Positions 252-30,200 are shown, counted from the first letter of the stretch. The stretch is DNA of 64,000 bases from Spirochaetia bacterium (GCA_963675665.1 OY776510.1:1952001-2016000); one strand, 5' to 3'. Notes: generated by a model from the sequence alone, not told the origin. Numbers and translations are program-made.

Positions 252-281
252 TCTGAAAGAAAGCAGTGATGCGTAGAGAGC

Positions 282-318
282 ACGGAGCAGAATTGACTGG
301 TTGTCAATTCTGCTCCGT
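282..318. terminator. 16-bp perfect hairpin between convergent genes (probable bidirectional terminator)
   Basis: acggagcagaattgac-tggtt-gtcaattctgctccgt; no clear U-tract. Confidence 0.55.
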
Positions 319-422
319 CACCAGCGAAATTTTTAATTCAAGCATACGGTGATTACGGAAAAAGTTTTACTTCAACGGTTTCAGTCCGGGGGAGGTTTGG
401 GGCTGATCTTGCCTGATTAATA

Positions 423-2240
423 CTATTTAATCAGGGGAAATTTTACAGTAAATCTGGTTCCGCCTTTAGGTATGTTTTCTGCTGTAATTTCCCCTTTAAA
501 TTTTGTGATGGTATTGTAGCTGATATACAGCCCCATACCCATGCTCTGATTTCTTTTTTTATTGGAGGAGTAGAACGGCATGAATATAGTATTCATTTTC
601 CCCTCTTCAATACCGGTTCCCGTATCTTCAAAAATGATCGCTACTTTATCATGTTCCTTATCGCTGTATTTGGTGCTGATGAGAAGTTCGCCTCCGTCCG
701 GCATGGCTTCTATTGCATTGCGGATTAGATTGAGAAATACCTGTCTTATTTCTGTCTTGCTGGCATAAATTTCAAAAATCTGTTTTGAATCATCAACAAT
801 AATTCTGACATTACTTTTCTTTGCATTGAATGTTAGAAGCATTACAACTCTTAGGAGCAGATCCGTAACATTGAAAACTTCAAGAGGGGCGTTCTCTTCT
901 GTTGAGAAACCCATCAGGTTGCTGATAGTCTGGGTGATAACCTTGATCTCATCTTCAATTATTTCAATATCAGCTGTAAGTGAAGTTTCATTACAGTTAT
1001 ATTTCATAATCTCAATGATATTTCTGATTATCCCCAGAGGATGATTGATTTCATGAGCAACACCAGCCGCAAGCATCCCGACAGAAGCAAGTTTTTCATT
1101 CTGGATAATATGTTCTCTGAGTGATTCTTCTTCGGTAGTGTCTGTAAGTATAAGAATCTTCCCGATAGAGTTATTATCTTCCATTATCGAAAATGAAGTT
1201 ATATTTGCTATACGTTTGATTCCGTTGAAGAATATCTGGGTTTTAACTGTCTTTGGAGTTGCATCTGAATTCATCAGCGATGTTTCATACTCTTTGGGAA
1301 CGGTAAGAAGCGCCCTCATGGGTCGGTTAAGCAATTGGGAGGTTTTAATCTGAAAGTAATTTTCGGCATGCAGATTCAGAAATTTAATATTGTAGTTATT
1401 GTCGACAGCGATAAGTACTACAGGCAGATCTATCAAAATGGCCTGATTGTATTTTATCAGGTTATAAAAATCTTTATTTGATGTGATCGTATTATGATTC
1501 AGAACATGGCTGTAGAGAATTTTAAGCAGATTATATTTGTCAAGATTGCCGTAAAGATCTGTAAGTATTATTTCACCCTGTCTCAATACAGAAAGATTTG
1601 TCGTAATCGGCGGAATGTAATCAATATGATTTATAAGAAGCAGGATTACGCCTCCGTTTGAAGCGAGTGTCTTTATTATTGCAATAGTCTTGTTGAAATT
1701 ATCAGCTGTCAGTTTGGACAGCACTTCATCAAGTATAAGAACTTTAGGTTTGCAGAAAATGGATATAAGTATTTCCAGAAAAATCTTTTCTGATTCGCTC
1801 AAACTGCCGATTGGCGTCTCTGCAGTAAAATCAGTATCGTAATCTTTAAGAAATTTATTCACCTCTATATTATATGATTTTGAGTCAAAGACCTTGCTGT
1901 ATTTTTTAATCTGGATATAAATGAAAAATTGTTCGCCTACGGTTATGTTTTCAAGAAGAAATCTGCTGTCGGTTATTACTTCAATGCCCAGCCTTCTGGA
2001 TTCTTTTATTGTAAGATTTCTGTAGGATTTGCTGCCGATTCTTATGCGGCCAGTTGATGCTTTCAGACTGCCTTTAAGTATATTGCTGATCAGACTTTTA
2101 CCGGATTCCTTTTCTCCAAGAATTGTATGAATATCTCCGGGGTGGAGTATAATATTTAAAGGTTTGAGCTCTGTTTTTTGAGCGTTCTTTTTTTGTGGTA
2201 TATATGTAATATTTTCTATTGAAATATCGTCTTTGTTCAT
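423..2240 (-). CDS. Soluble sensor histidine kinase with N-terminal degenerate sugar-ABC ATPase domain (ABC-PAS-HisKA-HATPase_c)
   Basis: N-terminus: 'GDIHTILGEKESGKS' (Walker A-like), 'VLILDE' (Walker B), 'VLRQGEI'. Middle is PAS-like. C-terminus: H-box 'AGVAHEINHPL', N-box 'NLIRNAIEA', G1 'DTGTGI', F-box 'IFMPF', G2 'GMGL'. No hydrophobic TM stretch. Confidence 0.85.
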   Translation of the reverse strand: MNKDDISIENITYIPQKKNAQKTELKPLNIILHPGDIHTILGEKESGKSLISNILKGSLKASTGRIRIGSKSYRNLTIKESRRLGIEVITDSRFLLENITVGEQFFIYIQIKKYSKVFDSKSYNIEVNKFLKDYDTDFTAETPIGSLSESEKIFLEILISIFCKPKVLILDEVLSKLTADNFNKTIAIIKTLASNGGVILLLINHIDYIPPITTNLSVLRQGEIILTDLYGNLDKYNLLKILYSHVLNHNTITSNKDFYNLIKYNQAILIDLPVVLIAVDNNYNIKFLNLHAENYFQIKTSQLLNRPMRALLTVPKEYETSLMNSDATPKTVKTQIFFNGIKRIANITSFSIMEDNNSIGKILILTDTTEEESLREHIIQNEKLASVGMLAAGVAHEINHPLGIIRNIIEIMKYNCNETSLTADIEIIEDEIKVITQTISNLMGFSTEENAPLEVFNVTDLLLRVVMLLTFNAKKSNVRIIVDDSKQIFEIYASKTEIRQVFLNLIRNAIEAMPDGGELLISTKYSDKEHDKVAIIFEDTGTGIEEGKMNTIFMPFYSSNKKRNQSMGMGLYISYNTITKFKGEITAENIPKGGTRFTVKFPLIK

Positions 2241-3574
2241 ACATCGACCTTTTTAAGAGAAATCCTGTACCTGGTGATTTTCCTGTAAAGGGTAGTTCTG
2301 CTGATTCCAAGAGCTTTTGCAGTATCGATTTTGTTGTAATTATACTTCTGCAGAGCCAGTTCAATTCTCTCTCTATCAATTTCAGGTTCAGTTTCAATCG
2401 GGTTGAACTCCCTGGTTTTTACAGCAGGTTTCATGAATTCCGGAAGGCTGTCGACCCCTATAGTATCGTTCAGTGAAGTAGCGCAGGAATATGAAATAAT
2501 ATTTATCAGTTCGCGAATATTTCCAGGCCAGTCGTAATCCATCAGCTTGCCGAAGACATCGTCCTTAATGAAGATCTCTTTCTGGTAATCCCTGTTGTAT
2601 TTATCAACAATATTTTTTACCAGAAGCGGAATGTCGTCTTTACGCTCTCGCAGCGGAGGTATTGTGAAGATTCCGGTATTTAACCTGTAGAAAAGATCTT
2701 CCCTGAATGAATTCTGCTGTACCAGGGTATAAAGGTCCTTATTTGTAGCTGCAATAAACCTGACATCAACTTTAATTATTTCCTTGCCTCCGATTCTTCG
2801 CAGTTCCTTGTTTTGTATTGCGCGCAGGATCTTTGCCTGAAGCGCCATCGACATATCGCCAAGCTCATCAAGAAATAATGAGCTGTTATGTGAGCGCTCA
2901 AAAATTCCCTTATACTGTTTGTCTGCGCCGGTAAAAGCGCCTCTGTCATGTCCGAAAAGTTCATTATCAAGCAGTGATTCCGGAAAGGCGGCGCAGTTTA
3001 TTTTCTGCAGCTGCTGATTCCTCCTTAGTGAATTTGAATGAATGAATTCGGCAAGGAGCTCTTTTCCGGTGCCGCTTTCACCGTTAATAAGTGCCGGCAG
3101 ATCTGTGGAAGCATATAAGGAGGCTTTTTCAAGAAGTTCCAGCATCTTCCGGTTTCTGGTAATTATCCCGTGCGTATGCGAGAAGTATTTTTGAAGTTCG
3201 AACTGTTCGATATTATTATTGCAGTACTTCTCAATCAGGCTTACAAGGTGCTCAATTGAAATAGGCTTCTGTATATAGTCTACCGCACCGGCCTGCATGG
3301 ATATTACCGCTGTTGAGATGGTGCCGTAGGCCGTAATCATGATTACAGGAATTCTGGGATATTTGTCGGCAAATTTTAAAAGCAGATCCATTCCTGATTC
3401 TTCACCGAGCATAATATCAAGAAGTATCATATCTATTTGTTTATCCAACAGAATATTAAAAGCCGAACTGCCGTTTAATGCGCTGAAAGCATTATATCCC
3501 CTTATTTTTAATAATCTGGAAAGCGATATATTATGCATCTCCTGATCGTCGACGATGAGTATGTTCTGTTTCAT
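2237..3574 (-). CDS. NtrC-family sigma54-dependent response regulator (REC-AAA+-HTH_8)
   Basis: 'ILIVDD...LLDIML...QKP' receiver, 'GESGTGKE', 'GAFTGA', 'WPGNIREL', 'ALGISRTTLYRK'. ATG at 3574 follows an AGGAG RBS. ATGA overlap with the kinase start. Confidence 0.93.
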   Translation of the reverse strand: MKQNILIVDDQEMHNISLSRLLKIRGYNAFSALNGSSAFNILLDKQIDMILLDIMLGEESGMDLLLKFADKYPRIPVIMITAYGTISTAVISMQAGAVDYIQKPISIEHLVSLIEKYCNNNIEQFELQKYFSHTHGIITRNRKMLELLEKASLYASTDLPALINGESGTGKELLAEFIHSNSLRRNQQLQKINCAAFPESLLDNELFGHDRGAFTGADKQYKGIFERSHNSSLFLDELGDMSMALQAKILRAIQNKELRRIGGKEIIKVDVRFIAATNKDLYTLVQQNSFREDLFYRLNTGIFTIPPLRERKDDIPLLVKNIVDKYNRDYQKEIFIKDDVFGKLMDYDWPGNIRELINIISYSCATSLNDTIGVDSLPEFMKPAVKTREFNPIETEPEIDRERIELALQKYNYNKIDTAKALGISRTTLYRKITRYRISLKKVDV

Positions 3575-3584
3575 TAAATCCTCC

Positions 3585-3648
3585 TGAAACAATAATGTTT
3601 CACTTTGTGGTACATTATTGTTACGGTTGGTGGTACATTATTGTACCA
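3585..3648. promoter_or_regulatory. Three tandem palindromic sites at 23-bp period (putative enhancer/UAS for the adjacent NtrC-type activator)
   Basis: TGAAACA-ATAA-TGTTTCA (3585), TGGTACA-TTAT-TGTTACG (3608), TGGTACA-TTAT-TGTACCA (3631), about 130-190 bp upstream of the sigma54 promoter. Confidence 0.7.
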
Positions 3649-3774
3649 CTTTAACATTGAATTCAAATTTATAAAAGTAAAATGTTTAGCTGTTCCAAAT
3701 AAAAGGTTAAGTAATTTCATAATATATAAGGCATTATAAATTTACTTGTGTATTGTGTTGTATAAAACCGACGA

Positions 3775-3790
3775 TGGCATGTTTGTTGCT
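3775..3790 (+). promoter_or_regulatory. sigma54 (-24/-12) promoter of the polyol ABC/dehydrogenase operon
   Basis: TGGCAT-GTTTG-TTGCT; GG (3776-3777) and GC (3788-3789) are separated by exactly 10 nt. Confidence 0.82.
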
Positions 3791-3877: not shown

Positions 3878-5167
3878 ATGAAATTAAGAAAGCAGTTGGT
3901 TCTTTTATTATGCTTTCTGTTGCTCGGAGCCGTCGTCTTTGCGACCGGTGATCAGGAAAGCAGCTCTGCTGATACAGCAGCAGCCGATTCAGATCTTCAT
4001 GAGATCTACCGGATCCTTCCGAAAGTACCTTTGTCAGGTGTTTTTGATCCTAACATGAAAGACCGATCCGGAATAGAAAAAGCATTTCCTGTTAAACCTA
4101 ATGATCCGGACAACATCGTAATTGGCTGGTCTGAAATAACACTTGCAAATCCCTGGTTTGTAGGCGTTTCGGATGAAGCACATCGTCTGGCTGAAAAATA
4201 CGGATACGAGTTGAAATTTCTTGTTGCTGATTACGATATTCAGAGACAGAGTCAGCACATTGATACTTTCATTACTCAGGATGTTGATATTATTGTTGTT
4301 GACCCGGTTGATATAATGGCTCCTGCTGCAGATATCAAGAGAGCTGTAGATGCCGGTATTCCTACGATATGTATAGGAACAGTACCGGACTATTCTGCTC
4401 CGATTCTCACAACTGTGATTCCCAATCCTTTTGAAAACGGATTTGCATCCGGTGAGTATATCGGTAAAACGTGGAGTGTTAATGAAGAAATCAATGCCGG
4501 GTATATCATCGGCGTTATGGGCAGTTCTACATCTGAAAGTCGGGGTTGTGGAGCAGTTTCCGGTATAGTTTATGGCAGGGCTCAGAAGCTGGGCGTTGAT
4601 ATGAGCAGAGAAGACGCCATGCTTCTGGGCTATAATCTGTTTGAAGAAATAAAAACAAAAGGTAAATTTTCCTATCCTAAACTTAAATTCAATGTTCTCG
4701 CCTGGGGTGTTGGTTCATGGACTGATGAAGGCGGAATGACAGCGGCCGAAGATATGATTACTGCTCATAAGGAAGATATGAATCTTATATTGGGTGGAAA
4801 TGATTTTATGGCAATGGGCGCTCTAAAGGCTGTTACCAACAATGGTCTTAAATCCCAGATTAAAGTAGCCGCCTGTGGGGCTGACGGGTTCAGGGAAGCG
4901 CTTGAACTGATTAAATCGGGAGACCTTATGTGTACTGGTCCATTTGCCGGAACAGCAGTTGGTGCGGCTGCAGTTGAACTGATTCACAAGATATTTGCTG
5001 AAGGTTATGACGCGGGTAATATGCCGATGGGTTCGTATTTCCCTGCTTCCGTAATTTCTCCGGAAACTATTGATGATTATTATGATCCGGACACTTCTAA
5101 TCCGTTTTATAAGCTGCAGCCTGTTCTTTTCAGATCCATTCCTGAAATACTGGCCAGCGGGAAATAA
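3878..5167 (+). CDS. Sugar ABC transporter substrate-binding protein (RbsB/Peripla_BP_4 family, extended)
   Basis: Signal peptide; 'NPWFV', 'VDIIVVDP', 'NDFMAMGA', 'GADG'; AGGAG RBS. Confidence 0.88.
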   Translation: MKLRKQLVLLLCFLLLGAVVFATGDQESSSADTAAADSDLHEIYRILPKVPLSGVFDPNMKDRSGIEKAFPVKPNDPDNIVIGWSEITLANPWFVGVSDEAHRLAEKYGYELKFLVADYDIQRQSQHIDTFITQDVDIIVVDPVDIMAPAADIKRAVDAGIPTICIGTVPDYSAPILTTVIPNPFENGFASGEYIGKTWSVNEEINAGYIIGVMGSSTSESRGCGAVSGIVYGRAQKLGVDMSREDAMLLGYNLFEEIKTKGKFSYPKLKFNVLAWGVGSWTDEGGMTAAEDMITAHKEDMNLILGGNDFMAMGALKAVTNNGLKSQIKVAACGADGFREALELIKSGDLMCTGPFAGTAVGAAAVELIHKIFAEGYDAGNMPMGSYFPASVISPETIDDYYDPDTSNPFYKLQPVLFRSIPEILASGK

Positions 5168-5180: not shown

Positions 5181-5211
5181 GAGTTCCGGCTGTAAATGCC
5201 GGAACTCTTTT
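5181..5211 (+). terminator. Intercistronic hairpin after SBP gene
   Basis: gagttccggc-tgtaaat-gccggaactc followed by tttt. Confidence 0.6.
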
Positions 5212-5231
5212 GCAGGCAGGAGATTTTAGTT

Positions 5232-6752
5232 ATGGGAGATTCAGCAATGTACAATGAAACAATCAACTTTGTTGAAATGCGGGACATCTGTAAGCATTTC
5301 GGCGGTGTACAGGCTTTAAATAAGGTTTCATTCAGTGCCGGTAAAGGCGAAGTGCATGCTTTAATGGGAGAGAACGGCGCAGGGAAGTCTACCCTAATGA
5401 AAATTTTATCGGGGGCTCATTTAAAGGATTCCGGAGAGATAAAATTAGACAATGAAGTCGTTGATATCAATAGTCCCAGATGCAGTCACGAAAATGGAAT
5501 ATCCATCATATACCAGGAATTTACCCTTGCAAGGGATTTGACTGTTGCTGAGAATATTTTTATAGACAATCTTGGGAAAGGCCGTTCAATTATCGACTGG
5601 AAAACTCTGAATGCCAAAGCAGCAAAACTGCTTAACAAACTTGGATTCAATGATATTAATGTATCCAGGCCTGTTTCTGAACTGTCGGTCGGATATCAGC
5701 AGGTTGTGGAAATCTGCAAAGCTTTGTCCCGGGATTCCAAAGTAATTATTTTTGACGAACCGACTGCTGTTCTGACGGTAAATGAAGTCACAAAGCTTTT
5801 CGAGATAATCAATACGCTGAAGAAGCATGATGTATGCATTATTTATATCTCTCACAGACTGGAAGAAATATTTGAAATCTGTGATCGTATTACGGTTCTT
5901 AAAGACGGCGGATATGTCGATACAGTTTCAGTTAAAGATACAACCAACAATGCTCTCGTTAGAATGATGATTGGGCGTGACCTTAAAGAGTTTTTCCCAC
6001 CCCGAAATGTAAAAATAGGAGAAACGATCCTTTCGGTAAATAATCTTTCCGCCGGCAAAGCGGTTAGGGACGTATCATTTGAACTTCGCAAAGGTGAAGT
6101 CCTCGGATTTAACGGGCTTGTCGGGGCAGGCCGGACTGAAACAATGCGGGCTATATTCGGAGCAGACAGAATTGATTGCGGAGAAATTTACCTCAGAAAC
6201 AAGCTTGTAAAAATAAAGTCTCCAAAAGAGGCTGTTAAAATGGGTTTGGGCATGCTGCCTGAAGACAGAAAAAATCAGGGAGTTTTATTGGAGCAGTCGG
6301 TACGTGTGAATGCATCATTAAGCTTTCTCAACAGAATCAGCAATTCATTCGGTTTTATTGACGGAAAGAAAGAAAAAGAAATTGTAAATGATTTAATGAA
6401 AAAACTTTCCGTCAAAGCAGAGTCAATCGATATTGAGACTTCAAGTCTTTCAGGCGGAAACCAGCAGAAGGTTTCGCTGATGAAATGGCTCGGTTCAGGC
6501 TGTGATATTTTAATACTGGATGAACCTACACGCGGAGTTGATGTAGGGGCGAAAATAGAAATATATAAAGTAATAAATAAATTAGCTGAAGAAGGAGTGG
6601 CCATAATTATGATCTCATCAGAATTACCTGAAGTTATCGGGATGAGCGACAGGGCAATAATAATGAGACAGGGTGTGGTAATGGGTGAATGTGCTGAAGA
6701 TACTCTTACAGAGCACGGATGCATAGAACTCGCAATGGGAGTAAATGTATGA
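5232..6752 (+). CDS. Sugar ABC transporter ATP-binding protein (CUT2, RbsA/MglA type, two NBDs)
   Basis: 'GENGAGKST', 'IYQE', 'FDEPT', 'ISHRLEE', 'LSGGNQQK', 'DEPTRGVDVGAK'. Start is 5232 or 5247. Confidence 0.93.
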   Translation: MGDSAMYNETINFVEMRDICKHFGGVQALNKVSFSAGKGEVHALMGENGAGKSTLMKILSGAHLKDSGEIKLDNEVVDINSPRCSHENGISIIYQEFTLARDLTVAENIFIDNLGKGRSIIDWKTLNAKAAKLLNKLGFNDINVSRPVSELSVGYQQVVEICKALSRDSKVIIFDEPTAVLTVNEVTKLFEIINTLKKHDVCIIYISHRLEEIFEICDRITVLKDGGYVDTVSVKDTTNNALVRMMIGRDLKEFFPPRNVKIGETILSVNNLSAGKAVRDVSFELRKGEVLGFNGLVGAGRTETMRAIFGADRIDCGEIYLRNKLVKIKSPKEAVKMGLGMLPEDRKNQGVLLEQSVRVNASLSFLNRISNSFGFIDGKKEKEIVNDLMKKLSVKAESIDIETSSLSGGNQQKVSLMKWLGSGCDILILDEPTRGVDVGAKIEIYKVINKLAEEGVAIIMISSELPEVIGMSDRAIIMRQGVVMGECAEDTLTEHGCIELAMGVNV

Positions 6753-7765
6753 GTACAATAATAAACAGCGAAAGCAAAACAGGCAAAAAAATTGACATTG
6801 GTGCCTTGATAATAAAATATAATGCCTTTTTTATGCTTATAGTATTAATAATTGTATCCAGTTTTTTGTCAAAGTCGTTCCTGACTTCAGGTAATATTCT
6901 GAATATTCTTCGTCAGAACACCCCCCTGATGCTTGCAAGTCTCGGAATGCTTCTGGTAATTCTTACCGGTGGAATTGATCTGGCGGTAGGATCAATTGCA
7001 GCAGTCAGCTGCATGATGGTTTCAATCGCAATAGCCAAATGGAATTTCACGTCGGTTTTCGGACTTGTCCTCGCTATCCTGATTTCGGTATTAGTCGGAT
7101 TCCTTCTGGGTGCAGCCACCGGCTCTCTGGTTGCGTTTATGAGAATGGCTCCTTTTGTCGCTTCACTGTCCATGATGACTATCGGCAGGGGAATTGCATA
7201 CCTTCTGACAAACGGGCAGCCCCTCAGGCTTCCGATGGAACGTACTGCTAGCAATATTCTCAATGCAATAGGAAATTCAAAAGTACCTTTTATAAACCTG
7301 CCGTGGCCTATCCTGATTTCGATTATTGCTATTGTGATTCTGTTTCTGGTGATGAAATACACAACATTCGGCCGGCTGCTGATTGCAACCGGAAGTAATG
7401 AAACAGCCGTCCGCCTGGCAGGAATTACCGTTGAGAAGTATAAATTCTTTTCATATGCAATATGCGGAGGATTGTGTGCAGTATCGGGTATTCTTGTAAC
7501 CAGCCGTGCGGCTATCGGAACGCCTGCAACAGGTTTAAATCTCGAACTTGATGCAATAGCCGCCTGCGTTATCGGCGGGGCAAGCCTTTCCGGAGGAAAA
7601 GGTACCGTTGTAAACACGGTTATAGGCGTGCTGGTTCTGGGTCTGATCGGAAATATTATGAACCTTTTAAGTGTTCCGGCATACCCGCAGCAAATTATCA
7701 AGGGGCTGATAATCATAGTTGCAGTTTTTCTGCAGGGAGTAACTGATAAAAAGACTAGAGTTTAA
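6749..7765 (+). CDS. Sugar ABC transporter permease (RbsC/BPD_transp_2)
   Basis: 'ILTGGIDLAVGS', 'GSNETAVRLAGI', 'ELDAIAACVIGGASLSGGKG'; ATGA overlap with the ATPase. Confidence 0.92.
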   Translation: MSTIINSESKTGKKIDIGALIIKYNAFFMLIVLIIVSSFLSKSFLTSGNILNILRQNTPLMLASLGMLLVILTGGIDLAVGSIAAVSCMMVSIAIAKWNFTSVFGLVLAILISVLVGFLLGAATGSLVAFMRMAPFVASLSMMTIGRGIAYLLTNGQPLRLPMERTASNILNAIGNSKVPFINLPWPILISIIAIVILFLVMKYTTFGRLLIATGSNETAVRLAGITVEKYKFFSYAICGGLCAVSGILVTSRAAIGTPATGLNLELDAIAACVIGGASLSGGKGTVVNTVIGVLVLGLIGNIMNLLSVPAYPQQIIKGLIIIVAVFLQGVTDKKTRV

Positions 7766-7800: not shown

Positions 7801-8331
7801 ATGATTCACGAAAAAGAGGTTGTGAAGGATAGATTGATGGCAACTGCCAAAAGGATGGCTGTTGCCGCCAGAACTGCTCCCAAATGCATGGGAGTAGATA
7901 ATATATTTATTTCCATTCTTGAAGAAGACGAAATTACCGCTGTAGCTGAACATATGCAGAAGATGCACCGTGAAAAAATGGTTCCGGATTATTACATCAG
8001 GGATGCAGAGAATATTATGGCGGTTCAGATTATGCTGCTGATAGGCACAGATTATGTTGCTACCGGAGCTCCCTCCTGCGGCGCCTGCGGTTTTAGAGAT
8101 TGCGGACATAAGGAAAAGGCTGTTCCGTGTGCATTCAATACTGCTGATATGGGTCTCGCTGTCGGGTCTGCAGTCTCGATTGCGGCGGACGACAGAATTG
8201 ATAACCGGATAATGTTTTCTGTAGGCCAGGCGGTTATCGATCTGAAACTTATAGATAAAGATTTGAAGTTTATTTACGGAATACCTTTGAGTATAAGTTC
8301 AAAGAATCCGTTCTTTGACAGAGGCAAATAA
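7801..8331 (+). CDS. DUF2148-family ferredoxin-like protein
   Basis: 'AARTAPK', 'CGACGFRDC', 'DMGLAVGSA', 'DNRIMFSVG', 'GIPLSISSKNPFFDR'. Confidence 0.8.
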   Translation: MIHEKEVVKDRLMATAKRMAVAARTAPKCMGVDNIFISILEEDEITAVAEHMQKMHREKMVPDYYIRDAENIMAVQIMLLIGTDYVATGAPSCGACGFRDCGHKEKAVPCAFNTADMGLAVGSAVSIAADDRIDNRIMFSVGQAVIDLKLIDKDLKFIYGIPLSISSKNPFFDRGK

Positions 8332-8342
8332 CAGAGAGAAAT

Positions 8343-9377
8343 ATGAAGGCATTGGTTCTTGAAAAAAAAGGCGATATCAGGTTGCGGGATATTGATATAG
8401 AAGAAACTCTCGGCCCTGGAGACGTCAGAATATCACCGGTCAGCGTTGGTATCTGCGGCAGTGATATACATTACTATCTCGACGGTGAAATAGGTTCATT
8501 TACTGTCAACGCCCCGATGGTTCTTGGTCATGAGGCTTCCGGTGTAATTATCGAAACCGGTTCGGATGTACATAATCTGAAAGTGGGCGACAGGGTATGT
8601 ATTGAGCCGGGCATTCCTGATTGGTCGGGCAAAGCGTGCAGGGAAGGGTTTTATAATCTCGATCCGGGACTAGTTTTCTGGGCAACTCCGCCGTGGCACG
8701 GTTGTCTACGTGAAAATGTAGTTATGCCTGAATCGCTTGTTTACAGGTTGCCTGATAATGTCGGAAACGAAGAAGGCGCGATGGTTGAACCGCTTGCGGT
8801 CGGGGTACATGCATCGTCAAAGGCGAATATAAAACCGGGCGATATTGCTCTTGTGCTTGGGGCCGGAACAATCGGGTATATGACGGCATTTGCGGCCCTT
8901 GCCTCCGGGTGCAGCCAGGTGATCATTACTGATATTAAACGGGACAGGCTGTCGGCGGCGGAAGAATATGATTCTGTTCTTCCGGTATGCGTTGCCGACT
9001 CGGATCTGTCTGAAATGGTTAACGAAAAGACAGGGAACCGGGGATGCAATATTGTATTTGAAACAACAGGCAGTGCAAGGATTTATGACGATGTTGCTGA
9101 ATATATATGCCCGGGCGGGACATTTATCATAATCGGAACGCCGCCGTGTTCTGTCGGCGTGAATATCGGCGCGCTGCAGGTAAAAGAAGTAACTGTAAAA
9201 CCAATATTCAGGTATGCAAATGTATACGACAGGGCCCTTGCTTTAATCAGCAGCGGACATGTAAACGTTAAACCTCTGATAACCCACCGGTTCGGTTTTA
9301 ATGATAGTGTTGAAGCTTTTAAATTTGCAGCAACCCTGCCTCAGGGTGCAATAAAAACAATGATTAATTTTTCATAA
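8343..9377 (+). CDS. Zn-dependent polyol dehydrogenase (xylitol dehydrogenase/D-xylulose reductase-like)
   Basis: '[10 protein letters not shown]', 'LGHEASG', '[14 protein letters not shown]', 'GAGTIG', 'IFRYANVY'; the structural-Zn Cys cluster is largely absent. Confidence 0.85.
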
Positions 9378-9390
9378 TAAGGAGATTGTA

Positions 9391-10557
9391 ATGAGTCAAT
9401 TCAGTTTTGTAATACCGGGAGAAGTTGTACTGGGCGCAGGTGTGGTAAACAAACTTGCTGAAATAGGAAAATCCTACGGAAGCAAAGCATACCTATGCAT
9501 GGATCCTTTTCTTGAGATCTCAGGAGTAGGGTCCGAGATTGAGGGCCTTCTAAAGAAAGACGGCGTTGATATAGTTAAATTCACGAAGGTTAAACCCAAC
9601 CCGAGTTGCCATGATATTGATGAAGGCGCTGATCTTTGCAGAAAAGAAAAATGTGATTTTATGGTTGCTGTCGGCGGAGGAAGCGCAATAGATACAGCAA
9701 AGGCAATTGCAATCCTCGCAATAAATCCCGGAAACAGCTGGGAGTATATTGCCCGTTCCGATCGTGAATTCAGAACCTTCAGTGAGAGTCTGCCTTTGAT
9801 TGCCGTACCTACTACAGCAGGAACAGGAACTGAAGTAACGCATTATTCAGTAATCAGCAACCCGGACATTCATGAGAAGGGATGTATTCATAACAAGGTC
9901 CTTGTTCCTGACTTCGCACTTGTTGACCCTGAACTTATGGTATCAAAACCCCCGAAACTTACTGCCTATACCGGTATTGATGCAATGTGCCATTCGCTGG
10001 AATCGTTTCTTAATGTAAATTCAACCCCGTTCCCGGATATGATAGCGCTTGAATCAGTAAGCCTTGTAGCAAGATACCTTCCCGAAGCGGTTGCAAACGG
10101 AACAAATATTGTTGCCCGTGAAAAGATGGCTTATGCAAGCACTCTCGGGGGTGTTGCTATTGCTCTGGCAGGAACAATACTGCCGCATGGTCTTGGCCAG
10201 CCGGTAAGCGGTCTTGTTGATATGCCTCACGGTGCAAGTATGGCTGCTTCATTGGGTCATATTATGGAAATATCCTATACAAGTAACATAGAAAAATTTG
10301 CAAGGCTTGCCGAATGTTTCGGAGAACCTCTTGACGGTTTGTCTACCTATGCAAAAGCCGAGATGAGTGTGGAATTTGTGCAGCGTCTGCTGAAAGATAC
10401 CGGCGCAGAAGTGACATTCGGAGAATACGGGCTTACTGAGGCCGATCTGGAAAAGACGGCTGAGATTGCCGTTAATAACTACTCATTTGATTTGAACAAC
10501 AGTCCTCTCAAGGTCTCAAAAGAGGAAATCATTGAAATATACAGAAATTGTCTATAG
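9391..10557 (+). CDS. Iron-containing (group III) alcohol dehydrogenase
   Basis: 'GGGSAIDTAK', 'PTTAGTGTE', 'GIDAMCHSLE', 'HGLGQ...HG'. Confidence 0.9.
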   Translation: MSQFSFVIPGEVVLGAGVVNKLAEIGKSYGSKAYLCMDPFLEISGVGSEIEGLLKKDGVDIVKFTKVKPNPSCHDIDEGADLCRKEKCDFMVAVGGGSAIDTAKAIAILAINPGNSWEYIARSDREFRTFSESLPLIAVPTTAGTGTEVTHYSVISNPDIHEKGCIHNKVLVPDFALVDPELMVSKPPKLTAYTGIDAMCHSLESFLNVNSTPFPDMIALESVSLVARYLPEAVANGTNIVAREKMAYASTLGGVAIALAGTILPHGLGQPVSGLVDMPHGASMAASLGHIMEISYTSNIEKFARLAECFGEPLDGLSTYAKAEMSVEFVQRLLKDTGAEVTFGEYGLTEADLEKTAEIAVNNYSFDLNNSPLKVSKEEIIEIYRNCL

Positions 10558-10569
10558 GGAGCGTGCAGA

Positions 10570-11646
10570 ATGAAAGCAGCAATGTGGTTTAAAAGAGGTG
10601 ATATCAGGGTTATAGATAATGTTCAGGAACCTGAACCCGGCCCGGGACAGGTGAAAATAAAGGTTAAATGGTGCGGAATCTGCGGTTCGGATATTCATGA
10701 ATATACCGACGGTCCCATCAGTATCCCCGGCGACAAGCCGCATCCTGTAACCGGGGAAAAGGCCCCGGTAATTCTGGGCCATGAGTTTTCAGGCGATGTT
10801 GTTTCAGTCGGCAAAGGTGTTACGAAATTCAAAGCTGGCGACCGTGTTGCCGTAGAGCCGATTGTCAGGTGCGGGAAATGCAAGGCCTGTCTGGAAGGTC
10901 GTTACCACAACTGTATGAACCTTGGCTTTCACGGTATCTCCGGCGGCGGCGGCGGTTTTGCCGATTACACTGTATTCACGGAAGAGTTTATCCATAAGCT
11001 TCCCGACGAAATCAGTTATGAACAAGGCGCTACTATTGAACCTTTTTCGGTCGGAATGCACGCAGTACTGAAGGCGGACTTCAGGGCCGGCGGTGAGGCT
11101 CTTGTTCTGGGGGCCGGTCCGATCGGTATAGGTGTTATAGCATGTCTGAAAGCTGCGGGAGCACGCAAGATTGTATGTATGCAGAGAAAGTCCGTCAAAC
11201 AGCAGTATGCAATAGAGGCCGGCGCGGACGTAGTACTTGATCCGAATGAATGCAATGTAGCTGAAGAAATTAAGAAATTAACCGATGGCAACGGTATTGA
11301 ATATGTCTTTGAAACAACAGCAGCCCCGGTAGGCTTTGAAATGGCGCTGGACAGCGTAATGAAAGCGGGAACCATAACAGTGGTCAGTTTCTGGGATAAG
11401 GAAGTATCTTTCAACCTGAACCGGATGATGCTTACCGAAGTAAAAATAATCGGTTCAATCTGTTTTAATGATAATTTTCCGACTGTAATGAAGATGATGG
11501 CTGACAAGAGGATTAATACAGGATCGTATGTCACCAGGAAAATTCATCTTGATAAAATTATGGAAGAAGGTTTCAGCATCCTGATGGGACCGGAGAAGAA
11601 AGAGAATCTGAAAATTCTTGTAACTCCGGATTTGGCGCTGCTATGA
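10570..11646 (+). CDS. Zn-dependent dehydrogenase, 2,3-butanediol dehydrogenase-like
   Basis: '[14 protein letters not shown]', 'GHEFSG', CxxCxxC...C, 'GGGGGFA', 'GAGPIG'. Confidence 0.85.
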   Translation: MKAAMWFKRGDIRVIDNVQEPEPGPGQVKIKVKWCGICGSDIHEYTDGPISIPGDKPHPVTGEKAPVILGHEFSGDVVSVGKGVTKFKAGDRVAVEPIVRCGKCKACLEGRYHNCMNLGFHGISGGGGGFADYTVFTEEFIHKLPDEISYEQGATIEPFSVGMHAVLKADFRAGGEALVLGAGPIGIGVIACLKAAGARKIVCMQRKSVKQQYAIEAGADVVLDPNECNVAEEIKKLTDGNGIEYVFETTAAPVGFEMALDSVMKAGTITVVSFWDKEVSFNLNRMMLTEVKIIGSICFNDNFPTVMKMMADKRINTGSYVTRKIHLDKIMEEGFSILMGPEKKENLKILVTPDLALL

Positions 11647-12689
11647 GTAAAAATACTAAATGCATGAAACAGGCAGTAATGATAAAACCCGGGGAAATCC
11701 GGTTCAGGGAAGTAGATATCCCTGAGATAAACAATAACCAGGTGCTGATCAGGATTCATGAAATCGGAATATGCGGCTCGGATGTCCATGTTTATCACGG
11801 AAAACATCCGACAACAGATTATCCGGTTGTGCAGGGGCATGAAGTAAGCGGTGAAGTGGTTGAAACGGGAGCGAACGTTAAAAGGGTTAAACCCGGTGAT
11901 CGGGTAATAATTCGGCCCCAGATCGTATGCGGAAAATGTATGCATTGCCTTGAGGGTAATTATAACATCTGTGAAGAACTTAAGGTTCTTGGATTCCAGG
12001 CAGACGGTGCCGGTTCTGAATATTATGCTTCAGACGAGGAATACCTGATAAAAATGCCGGATGGACTTTCTTATTCAGGGGGTACTATTGCGGAGCCTTT
12101 GGCGGTAGGTATTCATGCTCTTGAAAAAGCCGGCGGTGTAAGCGGGTTGAATATATTGATAATAGGGGCAGGCCCAATCGGGAATTTAACAGCGCAGGCT
12201 GCCGGAGCAAAAGGTGCTTCCGCCGTGATGATTTCCGATATAAGCGCAAATCGTTTAAAACTGGCTGCAGCTTGCGGTATTGATTTCACTCACAACGCTG
12301 AAAGAGAAGAACTGGGTTCAGCGCTTATTAAGAATTTCGGTTATAAAAAGGCTGATATTATATTCGATTGCGTGGGTTCTGAAGCAAGTCTTGGGGTCTG
12401 TATAAAAAATGCAAGAAAAGGTACCGGAATTATTAATGTCGGTGTGTATGAAGGCGAGATCCTGGCCGACATGAGCAAGGTTCAGGACAATGAGTCAAAG
12501 CTGTCGGGCACTCTCATGTATACCGAAAAGGACATGCTTGAGGCGTTAGCCCTTCTTTCGTCGGGTTCAATCGATTATGACAGTTTAATTACCAGTAAGT
12601 TCCCATTTTCCGAATATCCTGAGGCGTATAAACACCTTGATGCAAACCGTGATGCCGAGATGAAAATTATTATCGACTTATTTAATTAA
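11643..12689 (+). CDS. Zn-dependent (MDR) sugar-alcohol dehydrogenase
   Basis: 'GICGSDVH', 'GHEVSG', 'CGKCMHC...C', 'GAGPIG'. Confidence 0.87.
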   Translation: MSKNTKCMKQAVMIKPGEIRFREVDIPEINNNQVLIRIHEIGICGSDVHVYHGKHPTTDYPVVQGHEVSGEVVETGANVKRVKPGDRVIIRPQIVCGKCMHCLEGNYNICEELKVLGFQADGAGSEYYASDEEYLIKMPDGLSYSGGTIAEPLAVGIHALEKAGGVSGLNILIIGAGPIGNLTAQAAGAKGASAVMISDISANRLKLAAACGIDFTHNAEREELGSALIKNFGYKKADIIFDCVGSEASLGVCIKNARKGTGIINVGVYEGEILADMSKVQDNESKLSGTLMYTEKDMLEALALLSSGSIDYDSLITSKFPFSEYPEAYKHLDANRDAEMKIIIDLFN

Positions 12690-12716
12690 TGTACTTTTAT
12701 ATAGGGAGTATATCTG

Positions 12717-13484
12717 GTGATCAGCAAAGAATATAAAGCCGGGTTCAGGCTTGACGGAAAAACAGCAGTAATTACAGGCGGTGCCTCGGGGATTGGATAT
12801 GAAACAGCAAAACTGTTCGTGGAAAACGGGGCAAAAATATATTTGCTGGATTTCCAACGGGAAAAAGCCGCAAAAGCTGCCGGAGAAATAAAAAATGCTT
12901 CTAGTGCTTTCGTTGATGTGACGGATCCTTCTTCCGTAAGCGGGGTAATTGACTCGATAATTGAAAAAACGGGAGGGATTGATATACTTGTTAACTGTGC
13001 CGGAATAGGTGATATAGACAAAGCTGAAAATTTCTCTCCCGACTCATGGCGGCGGGTAATTAATACAAACCTTAACGGCACTTTCTTTATGTCGCAGCGA
13101 GTTGGTAAAGAAATGATCAGAATCGGTAACGGCGGGAAAATAATCTGTCTTGCATCACAGGCCGGAATAGTAGCTATTGATAAACATGCAGCCTACAGCG
13201 CAAGCAAATCCGGTGTTATATCCGTTGTAAAATCGCTTGCATATGAATGGGGAAAATACGGTATACAGGTGAATGCCATATCGCCTACCGCCACCGAGAC
13301 CCCGATGATCAAGGGATACTGGGATGAAGGCGAGGTCCATGAGAATGCAATCAGCAACACACCTGCCGGAAGATATTGCAAGCCGGCTGAAATCGCTGCT
13401 GCTGCACTTTTCCTCGCATCCGACTCGGCAAACATGATCACCGGAGCTAATCTTGTAATCGACGGCGGATTTACGATCCATTAA
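12717..13484 (+). CDS. SDR dehydrogenase, GolD/DthD (D-threitol dehydrogenase)-like
   Basis: 'TGGASGIG', 'ASQAGIVAIDKHAAYSASK', 'NAISPT', 'TGANLVIDGGFT'. Confidence 0.8.
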   Translation: MISKEYKAGFRLDGKTAVITGGASGIGYETAKLFVENGAKIYLLDFQREKAAKAAGEIKNASSAFVDVTDPSSVSGVIDSIIEKTGGIDILVNCAGIGDIDKAENFSPDSWRRVINTNLNGTFFMSQRVGKEMIRIGNGGKIICLASQAGIVAIDKHAAYSASKSGVISVVKSLAYEWGKYGIQVNAISPTATETPMIKGYWDEGEVHENAISNTPAGRYCKPAEIAAAALFLASDSANMITGANLVIDGGFTIH

Positions 13485-13544
13485 TTTATCAGTGTACAAA
13501 GATACGAACAATATTCTCAATTTTAATTCAGAAGGGAGAAACAA

Positions 13545-14573
13545 ATGAAAGCGGCAGTATTAACTGAATTTAATAAAATAGAAATAATTGATAAAGTCCG
13601 GCCTTCGATAAGTGACGATGAAGTTCTTGTAAAGGTTAAATACAACGGAATCTGCGGCACAGATCTGCATGTTATGCAGGGACATCACCCTGCGGCCGTT
13701 CCGCCTCTTGTTATGGGACATGAATTCAGCGGGACGGTTGAAAAAAAGGGAAAACATGTCGGTGATGAAATAAAAATCAGAGACCGGGTCGTTGTTCAGC
13801 CGTATGAATCCTGCGGCGAATGTGAGCCGTGTAAATCAGGATGCGAGAACGTCTGCCGTGAGTTGAAGATCTTCGGAGTTCACAGGGACGGTGCATATCA
13901 GGAATATGTTAATGTAAAGGCGTCGCGGCTTTTCAGGCTGGATGATTCAATTTCTGATATTGCAGCTGCACTTATTGAGCCGCTGGCTGTTGCTGTTCAT
14001 GATGTAAAAAAGAGCGGTTTGAAGATTGGCGGTTCAGTTATCGTAATAGGCGGAGGCCCGATCGGTTTGCTTATTGCTGTTGTTGCAGGAATTAATGGCG
14101 CTTCGAAGATCGCTATCAGTGAGATAAATCCGGCACGTATTAAAAAAGCACGGCAACTGGGATTCCAGGTGATTAATCCTGCAGAAGAGAACCTTGCCGA
14201 TAAAGCATATAAGATGACTGACGGCCGAGGTTTTGACGCCGTATTCGAGGTTTCGGGCAGCCGGCCCGGAACAGAAGCGATGACTATGCTTGCCAAAACC
14301 AGCGGAACAATTGTAATTGTCGGGATCCCTCCGGAAAAACATCCTGTTGATACAGACACCGTTTTCAAGAAAGAATTGAATATAGTCGGAGTCAGACTTT
14401 ACTCTAAGGTAGATTTTCAGGCTGCCGTTGATATCATGAAGAATGAAGAAAACCGCAGGAAGCTGATGGAGCTTGTATCGGCTGAGTATCCGCTGGAGCA
14501 GTTGACTGAAGCAATTGCTTACCTGCGGAACAGCAGTGATGCGTACAAGGTCCTGATAAAGATTGGGGAGTAG
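13545..14573 (+). CDS. Zn-dependent (MDR) sugar-alcohol/sugar-acid dehydrogenase
   Basis: 'GICGTDLH', 'GHEFSG', 'CGECEPC...C', 'EPLAVAVHD', 'GGGPIG'. Confidence 0.87.
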   Translation: MKAAVLTEFNKIEIIDKVRPSISDDEVLVKVKYNGICGTDLHVMQGHHPAAVPPLVMGHEFSGTVEKKGKHVGDEIKIRDRVVVQPYESCGECEPCKSGCENVCRELKIFGVHRDGAYQEYVNVKASRLFRLDDSISDIAAALIEPLAVAVHDVKKSGLKIGGSVIVIGGGPIGLLIAVVAGINGASKIAISEINPARIKKARQLGFQVINPAEENLADKAYKMTDGRGFDAVFEVSGSRPGTEAMTMLAKTSGTIVIVGIPPEKHPVDTDTVFKKELNIVGVRLYSKVDFQAAVDIMKNEENRRKLMELVSAEYPLEQLTEAIAYLRNSSDAYKVLIKIGE

Positions 14574-14622
14574 TAAGTATTTTTTCCCTTAAAAATCTGA
14601 AATGTTAAAATCTATTTAATTC

Positions 14623-15568
14623 ATGCTTACGATGCAGCGTTTTCCGTGGGAACAGGGAGCAGCCTCCCAGGCGGCGCTTGAAATAGGAGATTTCACGACT
14701 GCAAAACTGCTTGCCCACGACGCTGTTCTCAGGCAGTCGCCTGACGGTCGCCTGAGCACAGCTTTTTACCGCGACGATATCGCTATCTTCGGCGATAATA
14801 TCACGGTTACCGACTCATCGGCAAACGGGGAGGCGGTGCTCTACTTCGCCGATAAAGATAAGGACGACGCCCTTCGCAAAGCTGCCGACTTACAGCCTAC
14901 ATGGCTTGCCGAATGCGCGCCGAGAACTAAAGGCGGGGTACTCTACCATGTTAAAAACAACAGACAAGTTTGGGTAGATTCGATATTCATGGCCCTGCCG
15001 TTCATGGTTTTAATGGGTGCAGACCTCGAAGCAGAGCAGCCGTTTGACGGTTTCTACCGTATTCTGCATGATTCCGAAACAAGCCTGCTCTCACACATCT
15101 GGGATGAGGCAACCGGAGACTTCGCCCACAGGGATTTCTGGGATGTGGGCAACGGATGGGCTGCGGCGGGCATGGCCAAGATAATCCGCTTTCTGCCGGA
15201 CTCCGAAGATTTATTTAAAACAAAGACAATCGGAATGGTAACGGATATAGTAGATGCAGTACTGAAATACAGGAACGACAAATATTTATTCAACAATATC
15301 ATAGATCGTCCTGAAACATTCGTTGAAGTAAACCAGGCTCAAATGATTTGCACACGATCTTTTCCGGTGTTTCGGAGGGCTGGATGAATGATTCCTATGC
15401 CGATGTAGCAATTAAAATCCGGACTGCCGTACTGGAAAACGTCGATGAGCTAGAGTTAGTTCATAACCTCTGAGGCTCGCAACCTTCGCGGAACCGGGGA
15501 CTGCTGTCGAAGGCCAGGCGTTTTTCCTCCTGATGGAAGCGGCCTACGCGAGGTATTCTGAACAGTAA
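14623..15568 (+). pseudogene. GH105/GH88-type (YteR-like) glycoside hydrolase pseudogene
   Basis: The ORF 14623..15387 has 'WEQG', 'WVDSIFMALP' and 'WDVGNGW'. The family-like sequence continues in other frames ('TIFSGVSEGWMNDSY...', a stop, then 'PGTAVEGQAFFLLMEAA' to TAA at 15568), implying frameshifts and a premature stop. Confidence 0.72.
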
Positions 15569-26152: not shown

Positions 26153-26677
26153 TTATTCCGGAAAAAATTTCACTTCGCTGGTTTCAGTCCAGGGGATGTC
26201 CGGCGGTGTGCCGAAATTTTTCACCATTTCGATACGTATGTACTTTGCATTTACAGGCTTATCCAGTTTGAAGGTCTGCCAGCTTTCCTCTTTTTTAATT
26301 TTGCATTCTAGGACCTTTGTCCATTCGACCGAATCTATATCATCCAGATCAGATTTAAGCTCCCGCGGAGCTTCTGTATTGCAGATATAGATATTAATGT
26401 CGCTTGCGAGTTCTTCCAGTATGCTTATCGGCAGTCCGACGTTTGTGAAAAACCTGACTGTTTTGACGGGCTGCTCTTCCCCGAAAAAACTCAGAATTAC
26501 GTTTACCGGCCCCATTGTATTGGCGCCGTATGTTCCTCCGCTGCGTTCAATATCATCATCGATTATGTTGAGTACCCAGAAAAGCGGGTTGCTTTCCGTG
26601 TGACTGGCCCATTCAATCCTGGTGTAATAGGAGCCGTCGCGTCTGAGCCCCAGCGGATATAGTTCTTTATTATTCAT
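26153..26677 (-). CDS. Hypothetical cytoplasmic protein, galactose-binding/discoidin (F5/8 type C)-like
   Basis: GGAGG RBS. The C-terminal 'WQTFKLDKPVNAKYIRIEMVKNFG...SEVKF' resembles F5/8C strands. No signal peptide. Confidence 0.6.
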   Translation of the reverse strand: MNNKELYPLGLRRDGSYYTRIEWASHTESNPLFWVLNIIDDDIERSGGTYGANTMGPVNVILSFFGEEQPVKTVRFFTNVGLPISILEELASDINIYICNTEAPRELKSDLDDIDSVEWTKVLECKIKKEESWQTFKLDKPVNAKYIRIEMVKNFGTPPDIPWTETSEVKFFPE

Positions 26678-26692
26678 GTCATTCCTCCAATA

Positions 26693-27655: not shown

Positions 27656-27668
27656 CGCTCAAGCTCCT

Positions 27669-30142: not shown

Positions 30143-30158
30143 TTTAAACCTCACATAA

Positions 30159-30182
30159 ACAGCCGGGCATTAGCCCGGCTGT
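30159..30182 (-). terminator. Intercistronic hairpin after SBP gene
   Basis: acagccgggc-atta-gcccggctgt, 10-bp perfect stem. Confidence 0.6.
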
Positions 30183-30200
30183 GATAAATCTCTTTTACTG

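Follow-up and report, generated by a model that had tools for sequence, protein, structure and literature searches.

The stretch of DNA considered here, 64,000 nucleotides from a Spirochaetia bacterium (GCA_963675665.1 OY776510.1:1952001-2016000) and called the window throughout, begins with two minus-strand genes, at 423..3574, which encode a histidine kinase (P0001) and a response regulator and lie divergent from an operon for a CUT2 sugar importer. The input module of the kinase, as judged from its sequence, is a single nucleotide-binding domain (NBD) of the ATP-binding cassette (ABC) type, and it is with this fusion and its possible role in signalling that the present analysis is concerned. 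The locus comprises the following features, given with strand and, in brackets, the evidence for them.

423..2240, minus strand: NBD-histidine kinase P0001, 605 residues (open reading frame, Pfam, AlphaFold2 (AF2), Foldseek)
1506..2240, minus strand: NBD1-like domain of P0001, residues 1-245 (Pfam, NCBIfam, BLASTP; predicted local distance difference test (pLDDT) ~90 over residues 30-230)
1425..1505, minus strand: linker, with residues 244-253 of low confidence and then the conserved helix FYxxLKYNEAILxxLP at residues 254-269 (alignment consensus, AF2)
1137..1424, minus strand: PAS-like fold, residues 273-368 (AF2 strands and helices at 275-367; Foldseek match 4gcz)
894..1136, minus strand: DHp/HisKA domain, residues 369-449, with the phospho-acceptor H396 (nucleotides 1053-1055) in the box AGVAHEINHPL (Pfam HisKA)
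432..881, minus strand: catalytic ATP-binding domain HATPase_c, residues 454-603 (Pfam)
2237..3574, minus strand: NtrC-type response regulator with REC, a sigma54 AAA+ domain carrying GAFTGA, and a Fis-type helix-turn-helix (Pfam, translation)
3588..3649, unstranded: array of 15-16-nucleotide direct and inverted repeats, GTGGTACATTATTGT and its complement (repeat search)
3775..3790, plus strand: sigma54 -24/-12-like element TGGCATGTTTGTTGCT, facing the transporter operon (pattern match)
3878..5167, plus strand: sugar-type substrate-binding protein (Peripla_BP_4) with an N-terminal hydrophobic signal (Pfam, NCBIfam)
5196..6752, plus strand: complete two-NBD CUT2 ATPase (Pfam ABC_tran in 2 stretches; NCBIfam AraG/XylG/RbsA-like, 535-557 bits)
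6719..7765, plus strand: CUT2 permease (BPD_transp_2), whose cytoplasmic loop at residues 213-237 is the predicted contact for the kinase NBD (Pfam, NCBIfam, complex model)
7801..15387, plus strand: downstream genes for DUF2148, four zinc-dependent and one iron-dependent alcohol dehydrogenase (ADH), one short-chain dehydrogenase/reductase and a GH88-like open reading frame (Pfam)

According to Pfam and the AF2 model, P0001 runs from an ABC NBD through a linker helix and a PAS-like fold to DHp/HisKA and HATPase_c. ABC_tran matches residues 25-173 (64.3 bits, well over the cut-off of 25; E 2.3e-17), HisKA residues 389-449 (29.2 bits against a cut-off of 26.9) and HATPase_c residues 496-603 (80.5 bits, E 1.5e-22); no Pfam PAS family matches at E 0.01. 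The PAS fold is seen in the AF2 model (27-sequence alignment, mean pLDDT 78.6), where the helix at residues 254-269 connects it to the NBD and a long DHp hairpin follows at residues 369-443, and in Foldseek, whose best matches for the C-terminal half are PAS/LOV kinases such as 4gcz. The N-terminal half, modelled with the RecA-like core plus helical subdomain of an NBD, finds isolated NBDs, among them LptB (6mbn; TMt 0.85, root-mean-square deviation 3.1 over 239 columns) and MJ1267 (TMt 0.74-0.75), and no solved chain combining both halves was returned by Foldseek. H396 is invariant across 27 kinase sequences, as are N504, N508, D539, G541, G543, F553, G568 and G570 of HATPase_c; the H-box histidine and the N, G1, F and G2 boxes of class I (HisKA) histidine kinases are all present. 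A preliminary description of this DNA had proposed a PAS-like segment followed by intact HisKA and HATPase domains, with an ABC ATPase-like N-terminus and no transmembrane (TM) helix, and each of these elements was recovered, the highest 19-residue hydropathy (1.85) falling within the NBD core rather than in a TM segment. By these sequence features, P0001 is a soluble, cytoplasmic class I histidine kinase with a single NBD for its input module. The best NCBIfam model for its C-terminal part, AtoS (NF008468), covers residues 258-603 only and gives 196.2 bits against a cut-off of 646, so that P0001 falls short of the full-length score that defines an AtoS equivalog.

The same description had held a sequencing artefact to be an unlikely source of the fusion. 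A contig of 43.6 kb, obtained in another study, runs through 423-3877 without a gap, and a marine metagenome contig bridges the NBD/PAS junction. An assembly artefact is ruled out by these independent contigs, by the eight paralogues of the genome and by the at least 150 clusters of the family that are described below.

The open reading frame of the regulator extends over 2237-3592 on the minus strand, with an ATG at 3574 and an alternative TTG at 3592. Its Pfam matches are Sigma54_activat (1.2e-62), Response_reg (9.4e-25) and HTH_8 (2.5e-12), and it lies below all equivalog cut-offs, the best being AtoC with 375 against 714. The ATGA coupling of the kinase to this NtrC-type activator, noted before, can be read directly in the sequence, where the regulator stop overlaps the kinase ATG. 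The sigma54 promoter that had been placed between activator and transporter also finds a plausible counterpart: the element TGGCATGTTTGTTGCT lies ~100 nucleotides ahead of the binding-protein gene, rpoN is present in the genome, and the strict pattern TGGCAY-N5-TTGCN has only 25 matches in the 5.15-Mb genome. The regulator-kinase pair is divergent from both the element and the CUT2 operon. Scans of 1-4000 for sigma70 promoters and terminators stayed at or below shuffle expectation. The repeat array at 3588-3649 is a candidate enhancer for the activator, a function that we infer, and the genes at 7801-15387 are likely a regulated catabolic set, presumably co-regulated with the transporter. Its zinc- and iron-dependent ADHs and its short-chain dehydrogenase/reductase suggest that the inducer may be a polyol or sugar alcohol.

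From where did the kinase acquire its NBD? Among NCBIfam models, residues 17-275 best match the first halves of the CUT2 ATPases YtfR, LsrA, AlsA, XylG and AraG, although all CUT2 models score far under their own cut-offs on P0001, which has one NBD rather than the two fused NBDs per chain of ~500 residues that characterize these ATPases. In BLASTP comparisons with the neighbouring ATPase (5196-6752), the kinase is closer to NBD1 (28% identity over 189 residues, E 5e-16) than to NBD2 (19% identity, E 0.002); the alignment recovers, letter for letter, all three motif pairs by which the N-terminal ~245 residues had earlier been matched to this NBD1. In a FastTree phylogeny of 175 NBDs, the 27 kinase NBDs, joined by one compositionally odd NBD1, form a clade with a support of 95 on the NBD1 side, whereas all NBD2s form a separate clade with a support of 100. 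In a quick IQ-TREE analysis of 70 rows, from which the long-branched HKP0018 had been excluded, 26 kinase NBDs fall on one side of a branch, with SH-aLRT 78, which is only moderate support for their grouping. The odd NBD1, from a CUT2 ATPase in the C1:2672702 region of the genome, joins the kinase NBDs in the FastTree but not in the IQ-TREE phylogeny, and its grouping with them is probably due to long-branch attraction. On the evidence of these alignments and trees, the kinase NBD is a descendant of the CUT2 NBD1 lineage. Furthermore, the kinase NBDs are not sister to the NBD1s of their own neighbouring ATPases; thus, the phylogeny points to one old fusion that subsequently spread, rather than to repeated local fusions.

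The fusion had been reported to occur twice in this DNA. The second copy is confirmed, but the family is commoner than this implied, as the one-contig 5.15-Mb genome holds 8 full-length NBD-kinase paralogues next to 17 NtrC-like regulators and 70 two-NBD CUT2 ATPases, the latter an unusually large complement for a genome of this size. A profile search of 1.84 billion representatives at 50% identity yielded at least 150 family clusters at E <= 1e-119, most of them with full-length representatives of ~600 residues. In a word-indexed search, all three Pfam domains were found in 15 of 120 proteins among the matches listed. Databases list family members under generic names, such as 'ATP-binding cassette domain-containing protein [Oceanispirochaeta sp. 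M1]', 'histidine kinase' or 'AtoS'; the named records place members in Spirochaetota and in one KSB3 genome. In a sample of the phylum, at least 14 of 401 genomes, from 7 family codes, have near-complete matches, counted at over 400 bits with query coverage from position 51 or before to position 605 or beyond; three candidates were scored per genome, so that this count is a floor. A cut-off of 1e-60 was dropped as too lenient, E-values being per genome. A scan of contigs with the H-box peptide led mostly to ordinary kinases (75 of 80 loci), with full-length members at the other 5. In the ESM Atlas, the homologue P0017 retrieved its own cluster (617 residues, 62 members) and a 515-residue ABC_tran+HisKA cluster (136 members), both of Spirochaetota.

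Variant forms are found as well. The metagenome protein P0039 (474 residues) joins its NBD straight to DHp without a PAS fold, and this NBD is canonical in Walker A, Q-loop, LSGGQ, D-loop and H-switch; therefore, the NBD can be the sole input in a PAS-less form. Among the matches listed by the same ESM Atlas search are two Actinomycetota clusters of ~830-850 residues (166 and 64 members) with ABC_tran and HisKA, one of them with GAF_2 in addition. At scores of 0.83-0.84 these are leads only, as is any match under 0.9, and they may represent an independent NBD-kinase fusion. At L017 (4896-11746), two regulator/NBD-kinase pairs lie back to back, one of the regulators being 632 residues long with ~190 additional residues at its N-terminus. 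In other genomes, three family matches carry one in-frame stop each, TAG in G048:C4:28837-30657, TAA in G281:C2:14722-16548 and TGA in G281:C3:33734-35170; these are possible pseudogenes or sequencing errors.

What has become of the ATPase machinery in the kinase NBD? In P0001, Walker A (GEKESGKS, residues 42-49, nucleotides 2094-2117, following GxxxxGKS) and Walker B (VLILDE, residues 167-172, nucleotides 1725-1742) are intact. The motifs of the catalytic cycle are not: the position of the Q-loop Gln is D91, that of the LSGGQ signature reads LSESEK (residues 147-152), that of the D-loop reads VLSKL, and that of the H-switch His is N204, with H205 one residue further. For the family, 161 kinase NBDs were compared with 74 NBD1s. 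The Walker A Lys is kept in 96% of kinase NBDs (100% of NBD1s), the Walker B Asp in 95% (100%) and the Walker B Glu in 88% (100%), while the Q-loop Gln is found in 76% (100%) and the H-switch His in 61% (100%); the signature Gln (86% in NBD1s) and the Pro-Thr of the D-loop (96% and 89%) are lost. The nucleotide site is the best conserved class of positions in the kinase NBD (0.72). Five residues are conserved in the kinases only (P165, D207, D234, L238 and Y243), most of them in the final helix of the NBD, the one that runs on toward the PAS domain. This pattern fits a domain that would bind nucleotide without efficient hydrolysis and would retain a conserved output path. It is likewise consistent with the earlier proposal that the altered Q-loop, D-loop and H-switch denote nucleotide binding rather than transport.

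A different view of the same decay would be that the NBD is a structural scaffold for dimerization or localization, left over from the fusion and without a role in signalling, the PAS domain being the real sensor. We regard this as rather improbable. The loss of signature, D-loop and H-switch and a conservation below that of NBD1s (0.41 against 0.50 for the remaining class of positions) are what such a relic would show, but a relic would hardly be expected to keep the Walker residues across 161 sequences, the kinase-specific residues clustered in the helix toward PAS, or the full NBD fold in at least 150 clusters of constant length, and the PAS-less form has no other sensor to which the role could fall.

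The genomic surroundings connect the family to CUT2 transporters. Thirty systems were examined: the 8 of this genome, 6 from the five full-length contig-scan loci and 16 from the phylum sample. The pairing of the kinase with an NtrC-type sigma54 activator encoded upstream is conserved. In 26 of the 30 (7/8, 4/6 and 15/16, respectively), the regulator-kinase pair has a CUT2 ATPase and/or permease for a neighbour, usually in divergent orientation, which bears out the association with CUT2 operons that the first locus had suggested. Given the 70 CUT2 ATPase genes of this genome, the probability that 7 of 8 paralogues would lie within 5 kb of one by chance is 6e-6. By comparison, this genome has 9 further sigma54 two-component systems, whose kinases have dCache, PocR, SBP_bac_3, sCache, HAMP or PAS inputs, and just 2 of them adjoin a CUT2 operon (Fisher p 0.015). 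The sigma54 elements follow the same distribution: 7 of the 25 strict -24/-12 matches fall within the 183 kb around the paralogues, against ~0.9 expected. Strict elements that face the transporter are also found at L003, L004 and, twice, at L017, and a looser one at L002.

Does the kinase NBD touch the permease of the transporter? The complex of the permease (21-row alignment) with residues 1-250 of the kinase (27-row alignment) was predicted with an ipSAE of 0.69 (0.70, 0.69 and 0.69 in individual runs), against 0.00 for the best of 3 controls; in calibration, 116 of 157 solved complexes and 2 of 215 mismatched pairs scored as high. Contact agreement was at least 98% and partner pLDDT at least 81. 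On the permease side, the predicted interface is formed by the cytoplasmic loop 213-237 with its conserved GRxxYAxGGNExAAxxSGI, plus residues 293-294; on the NBD side, it is formed by the Q-loop and helical subdomain (residues 58, 77-79, 82, 92-99, 103, 106-108, 110-111 and 114-119). As modelled, this is the canonical geometry of an ABC coupling helix; therefore, the passing score may merely reflect likeness to solved ABC transporters rather than binding.

Co-variation between the partners was evaluated by position from identity distances, for 19 systems, for 17 systems after removal of the ortholog partners L097 and L110, and for the 7 paralogues of this genome. The predicted contact positions of NBD and permease co-vary with r 0.39 (p 0.0003), r 0.19 (p 0.022) and r 0.44 (p 0.043), respectively. 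Among variability-matched random sets, those drawn from NBD non-contact positions reach the observed r in 0.3%, 1.3% and 0.3% of cases, and those drawn from the kinase core in 0%, 0% and 2.2%. For the same permease contacts, r lies between -0.15 and 0.18 when they are compared with the kinase core, the regulator or the non-contact positions of the NBD. At the contact positions, the kinase NBD also resembles the NBD1 of its cognate ATPase more than it does the others (mean rank 31.8 of 84, with 42.5 expected; n=21, one-sided p 0.020), whereas elsewhere in the NBD it ranks 39.5 on average (p 0.17). Gene conversion with the neighbouring ATPase was considered and rejected, identity over residues 75-120 being 14-40% and no higher than in the flanks.

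The earlier suggestion that the kinase docks on the permease is upheld to the extent that the complex model passes and that a modest, interface-specific co-variation exists; this support is computational and falls short of a demonstration of binding. Our preferred reading, which we place at the midpoint between belief and disbelief, is that a dimer of the kinase docks on its cognate CUT2 permease, where it stands in for an NBD, binds ATP but hydrolyses it poorly, and reports the state of the transporter. In this scenario, both NBDs of the dimer would sit on the coupling loops of the permease, just like the transporter's own ATPase. Being ATP-bound and poorly hydrolysing, they would open and close with the permease when a substrate-loaded binding protein docks on the outside. 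The movement would reach the PAS and DHp domains via two helices, the conserved one at the C-terminal end of the NBD and that of the linker, and would switch autophosphorylation at H396; the phosphorylated regulator would then activate the sigma54 promoter at 3775 and, with it, the transporter and the downstream dehydrogenase genes. Binding protein, permease and NBD-kinase would thereby constitute a transmembrane receptor without a dedicated sensor protein.

A number of observations weigh against such docking. The Q-loop Gln, in the groove where the permease is predicted to bind, is gone in about a quarter of the kinase NBDs, P0001 with its D91 included. The predicted contact residues are the least conserved class of the kinase NBD (0.28, against 0.46 in NBD1s), a drop that exceeds the background (Mann-Whitney p 0.025) and that could reflect relaxed constraint rather than specificity. 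A whole-domain mirror-tree comparison of the NBD with ATPase, permease and binding protein in the first 10 systems gave r ~0. Against non-contact permease positions the NBD contacts are unremarkable, 39-67% of matched sets reaching the observed r, and the co-variation signal as a whole is modest, with a model-derived interface, identity-based distances, related systems and several sequential tests behind it. Some systems have no transporter at their side: L086 faces an ADH-ADH-glycyl-radical operon that has a -24/-12 element of its own, L104 faces LacI, FGGY and AraA genes, the second system of L017 (L017b) adjoins only a binding protein, and L001 lacks an adjacent transporter but is cut by the contig end. 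Finally, the adjacent transporters carry complete two-NBD ATPases and are not short of an NBD.

Several of these points could be accommodated if the NBD were a soluble module that gates the kinase on binding ATP or ADP, as a measure of the energy state, or another ligand such as a metabolite, without ever touching a transporter, with the PAS domain binding an intracellular sugar or catabolite and the link to CUT2 reflecting no more than the genes under control. A nucleotide site that is conserved best over an interface that is conserved least, the missing Q-loop Gln of P0001, and the catabolic operons of L086 and L104 would all be natural for such a sensor; the 8 paralogues, with PAS regions that are only 25-42% identical, could each bind a different ligand, and with 70 CUT2 ATPases in the genome, most sugar loci have one anyway. 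A parallel would be KdpD, whose P-loop N-terminal domain modulates that kinase. We nevertheless judge such a sensor to be unlikely, if well worth keeping in view: a PAS-less member has the NBD as its sole input, generic energy sensing does not explain 8 locus-specific copies, the other sigma54 systems of the genome seldom adjoin CUT2 operons, and neither the interface-specific co-variation with the permease nor the resemblance that these positions show to the cognate NBD1 would be expected.

Another question is whether the kinase NBD could pair head-to-tail with an NBD of the transporter ATPase instead of docking on the permease, and so sense ATP turnover; a pairing with the real ATPase, with the kinase taking the place of an NBD, had been the second option of the earlier description. 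An intact Walker A combined with a degenerate signature would suit a one-sided composite site, and the contact distances do track ATPase distances (partial r 0.44 over 19 systems, 0.22 with the orthologs removed), although ATPase and permease distances themselves co-vary strongly (r 0.78). L103 and L111 have single-NBD ATPases (265 and 281 residues) beside CUT2-type permeases. However, at least 24 of the 26 transporter-linked systems have a self-contained two-NBD ATPase, the D-loop, which forms the contact between NBDs, has decayed in the kinases, and the co-varying positions belong to the groove of Q-loop and helical subdomain rather than to the dimer face, and we consider such pairing very improbable. 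The single-NBD ATPases, of 262-281 residues in all (L103 5703-6500, L111 5908-6753 and L111 2623-3411, each on the minus strand), may be real half-size ATPases or genes split in draft assemblies.

Returning to docking on the permease, how would the kinase find a place on a transporter that already has its ATPase? In a more specific version, for which we see slightly less than an even chance, the kinase homodimer replaces the ATPase on a sub-population of the CUT2 permease dimers, yielding a dedicated signalling transporter. The usual binding protein would sense the extracellular sugar, the usual permease would pass the signal on, and two ATP-loaded, non-hydrolysing NBDs would read it, their closure switching the kinase to which they are fused. 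If true, this would amount to a modular transmembrane receptor built of transporter parts, with competition from the induced ATPase as a built-in feedback. The PAS-less form with its canonical NBD and, possibly, the NBD-GAF-kinases of Actinomycetota would then be further versions of the same principle.

The second copy in the window is arranged differently, as a regulator-kinase pair (22781-25911) directly downstream of a CUT2 operon and convergent with genes for a glycyl-radical enzyme and its activase. Its features are as follows.

22781..24610, minus strand: second NBD-histidine kinase, 609 residues (Pfam ABC_tran 1.1e-12, 49.2 bits; HATPase_c; PAS_9)
24592..25911, minus strand: NtrC-type sigma54 response regulator of the second pair, upstream of its kinase (Pfam)
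26153..31286, minus strand: second CUT2 operon, which lies upstream of the regulator of the second pair and shares its strand
30201..31286, minus strand: binding protein of the second operon
28625..30154, minus strand: ATPase of the second operon
27669..28628 and 26693..27655, minus strand: permeases of the second operon

This kinase is 26-27% identical to the first, and its PAS_9 match has 26.6 bits against a cut-off of 27. Between the last permease gene of the second operon and the second regulator lies an open reading frame of 174 residues without a Pfam family (26153-26677, minus strand). Glycyl-radical (PFL-like) enzymes adjoin two sister NBD-kinase paralogues, the one in the window (19426-22779) and that of L086 (14483-16894), with an activase in the window copy. 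Downstream of the first transporter, the open reading frame of 254 residues at 14623-15387 matches only positions 72-256 of the 352-position GH88 profile and is, to go by this match, possibly a truncated glycoside hydrolase gene. Elsewhere in the window, 44798-49185 holds a conventional set of a dCache-HAMP-His_kinase protein (PF06580), a REC-AraC regulator and a Peripla_BP_4 homologue; this sugar-sensing set is a useful internal contrast to the NBD-kinase design.

If the docking scenario is true, the conformational cycle of an importer that depends on a binding protein would have a natural read-out in a kinase with an ABC NBD as its input, and the response of a soluble kinase to a sugar outside the cell would have an explanation. 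Kinase activity or a sigma54 reporter would then allow a direct test of a long-standing question, namely by what route the docked binding protein makes itself felt at the NBDs. The 8 copies in a genome with 70 CUT2 systems constitute a natural panel for specificity, and the design suggests modular biosensors made from existing pairs of binding protein and permease. For annotation, the point is more immediate: current generic names hide the NBD-kinase architecture and misassign the function of a family with at least 150 clusters at 50% identity, mostly from Spirochaetota.

How does this family relate to systems already described? In the transporter-coupled signalling systems known to us, either the partners are separate proteins (Bce, Pst/PhoU/PhoR, DctA/DcuS) or a secondary-transporter domain is fused to the kinase (CbrA). 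In its C-terminal 350 residues (PAS, DHp and catalytic domains), P0001 is like the PAS-HisKA kinases AtoS and NtrB, and its sigma54 regulator is of that type; the input of AtoS, however, consists of TM and HAMP, whereas that of P0001 is the NBD. In MalK-MalT, a transporter NBD binds a separate regulator, and in sensors of the XylFII-LytS type, a homologue of the binding protein binds a membrane kinase. Both resemble the present systems in coupling sugar ABC transport to transcription, but they do so without an NBD inside the kinase.

BceS/BceR provides the case of a kinase without a sensor domain of its own that reads the activity of the neighbouring BceAB and induces this transporter (PMC6978683, PMC3023708). 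P0001 is likewise encoded beside its cognate ABC transporter. However, BceS is a membrane kinase without an NBD that contacts the permease via TM helices, whereas P0001 is soluble and has an NBD; and the transporter here is a CUT2 importer dependent on a binding protein, its regulator a sigma54 activator. Neither the two-TM intramembrane-sensing kinase of the Bce type nor a BceB permease with its large extracytoplasmic loop is found at the locus, as P0001 has no TM segment and the permease belongs to BPD_transp_2. PhoR/PhoB, with PstSCAB and PhoU, exemplifies a kinase without a periplasmic sensor that is controlled by an ABC importer (PMC6978683). There, coupling involves the PhoU adaptor and the transporter's own NBD, PstB, while here the kinase itself carries a fused NBD homologue, and the NBD-kinase loci examined showed no PhoU-like gene.

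A transporter-derived domain fused to a kinase has its closest parallel in CbrA and CrbS, in which an SLC5 transporter domain serves as the input of a histidine kinase (PMC7096432, PMC5715377). Their domain is the membrane permease of a secondary transporter, though, whereas the domain in P0001 is a soluble ABC ATPase and the permease is a separate protein. KdpD, a histidine kinase with an N-terminal cytoplasmic Walker A domain, controls KdpFABC (PMC11018627, PMC2714519); it is membrane-anchored, and its P-loop domain is reported as a serine kinase acting on KdpB rather than as an ABC NBD. The N-terminal domain of P0001 belongs to another family, and P0001 has no KdpD Pfam match. A description of an ABC-NBD/histidine-kinase fusion was not found in the full-text literature searched, a collection that covers few subscription journals. 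The NBD-kinases are a real and sizeable family, uncharacterised in that literature, which acts like the transporter-coupled systems Bce, Pst/PhoU/PhoR and CbrA but belongs to none of them.

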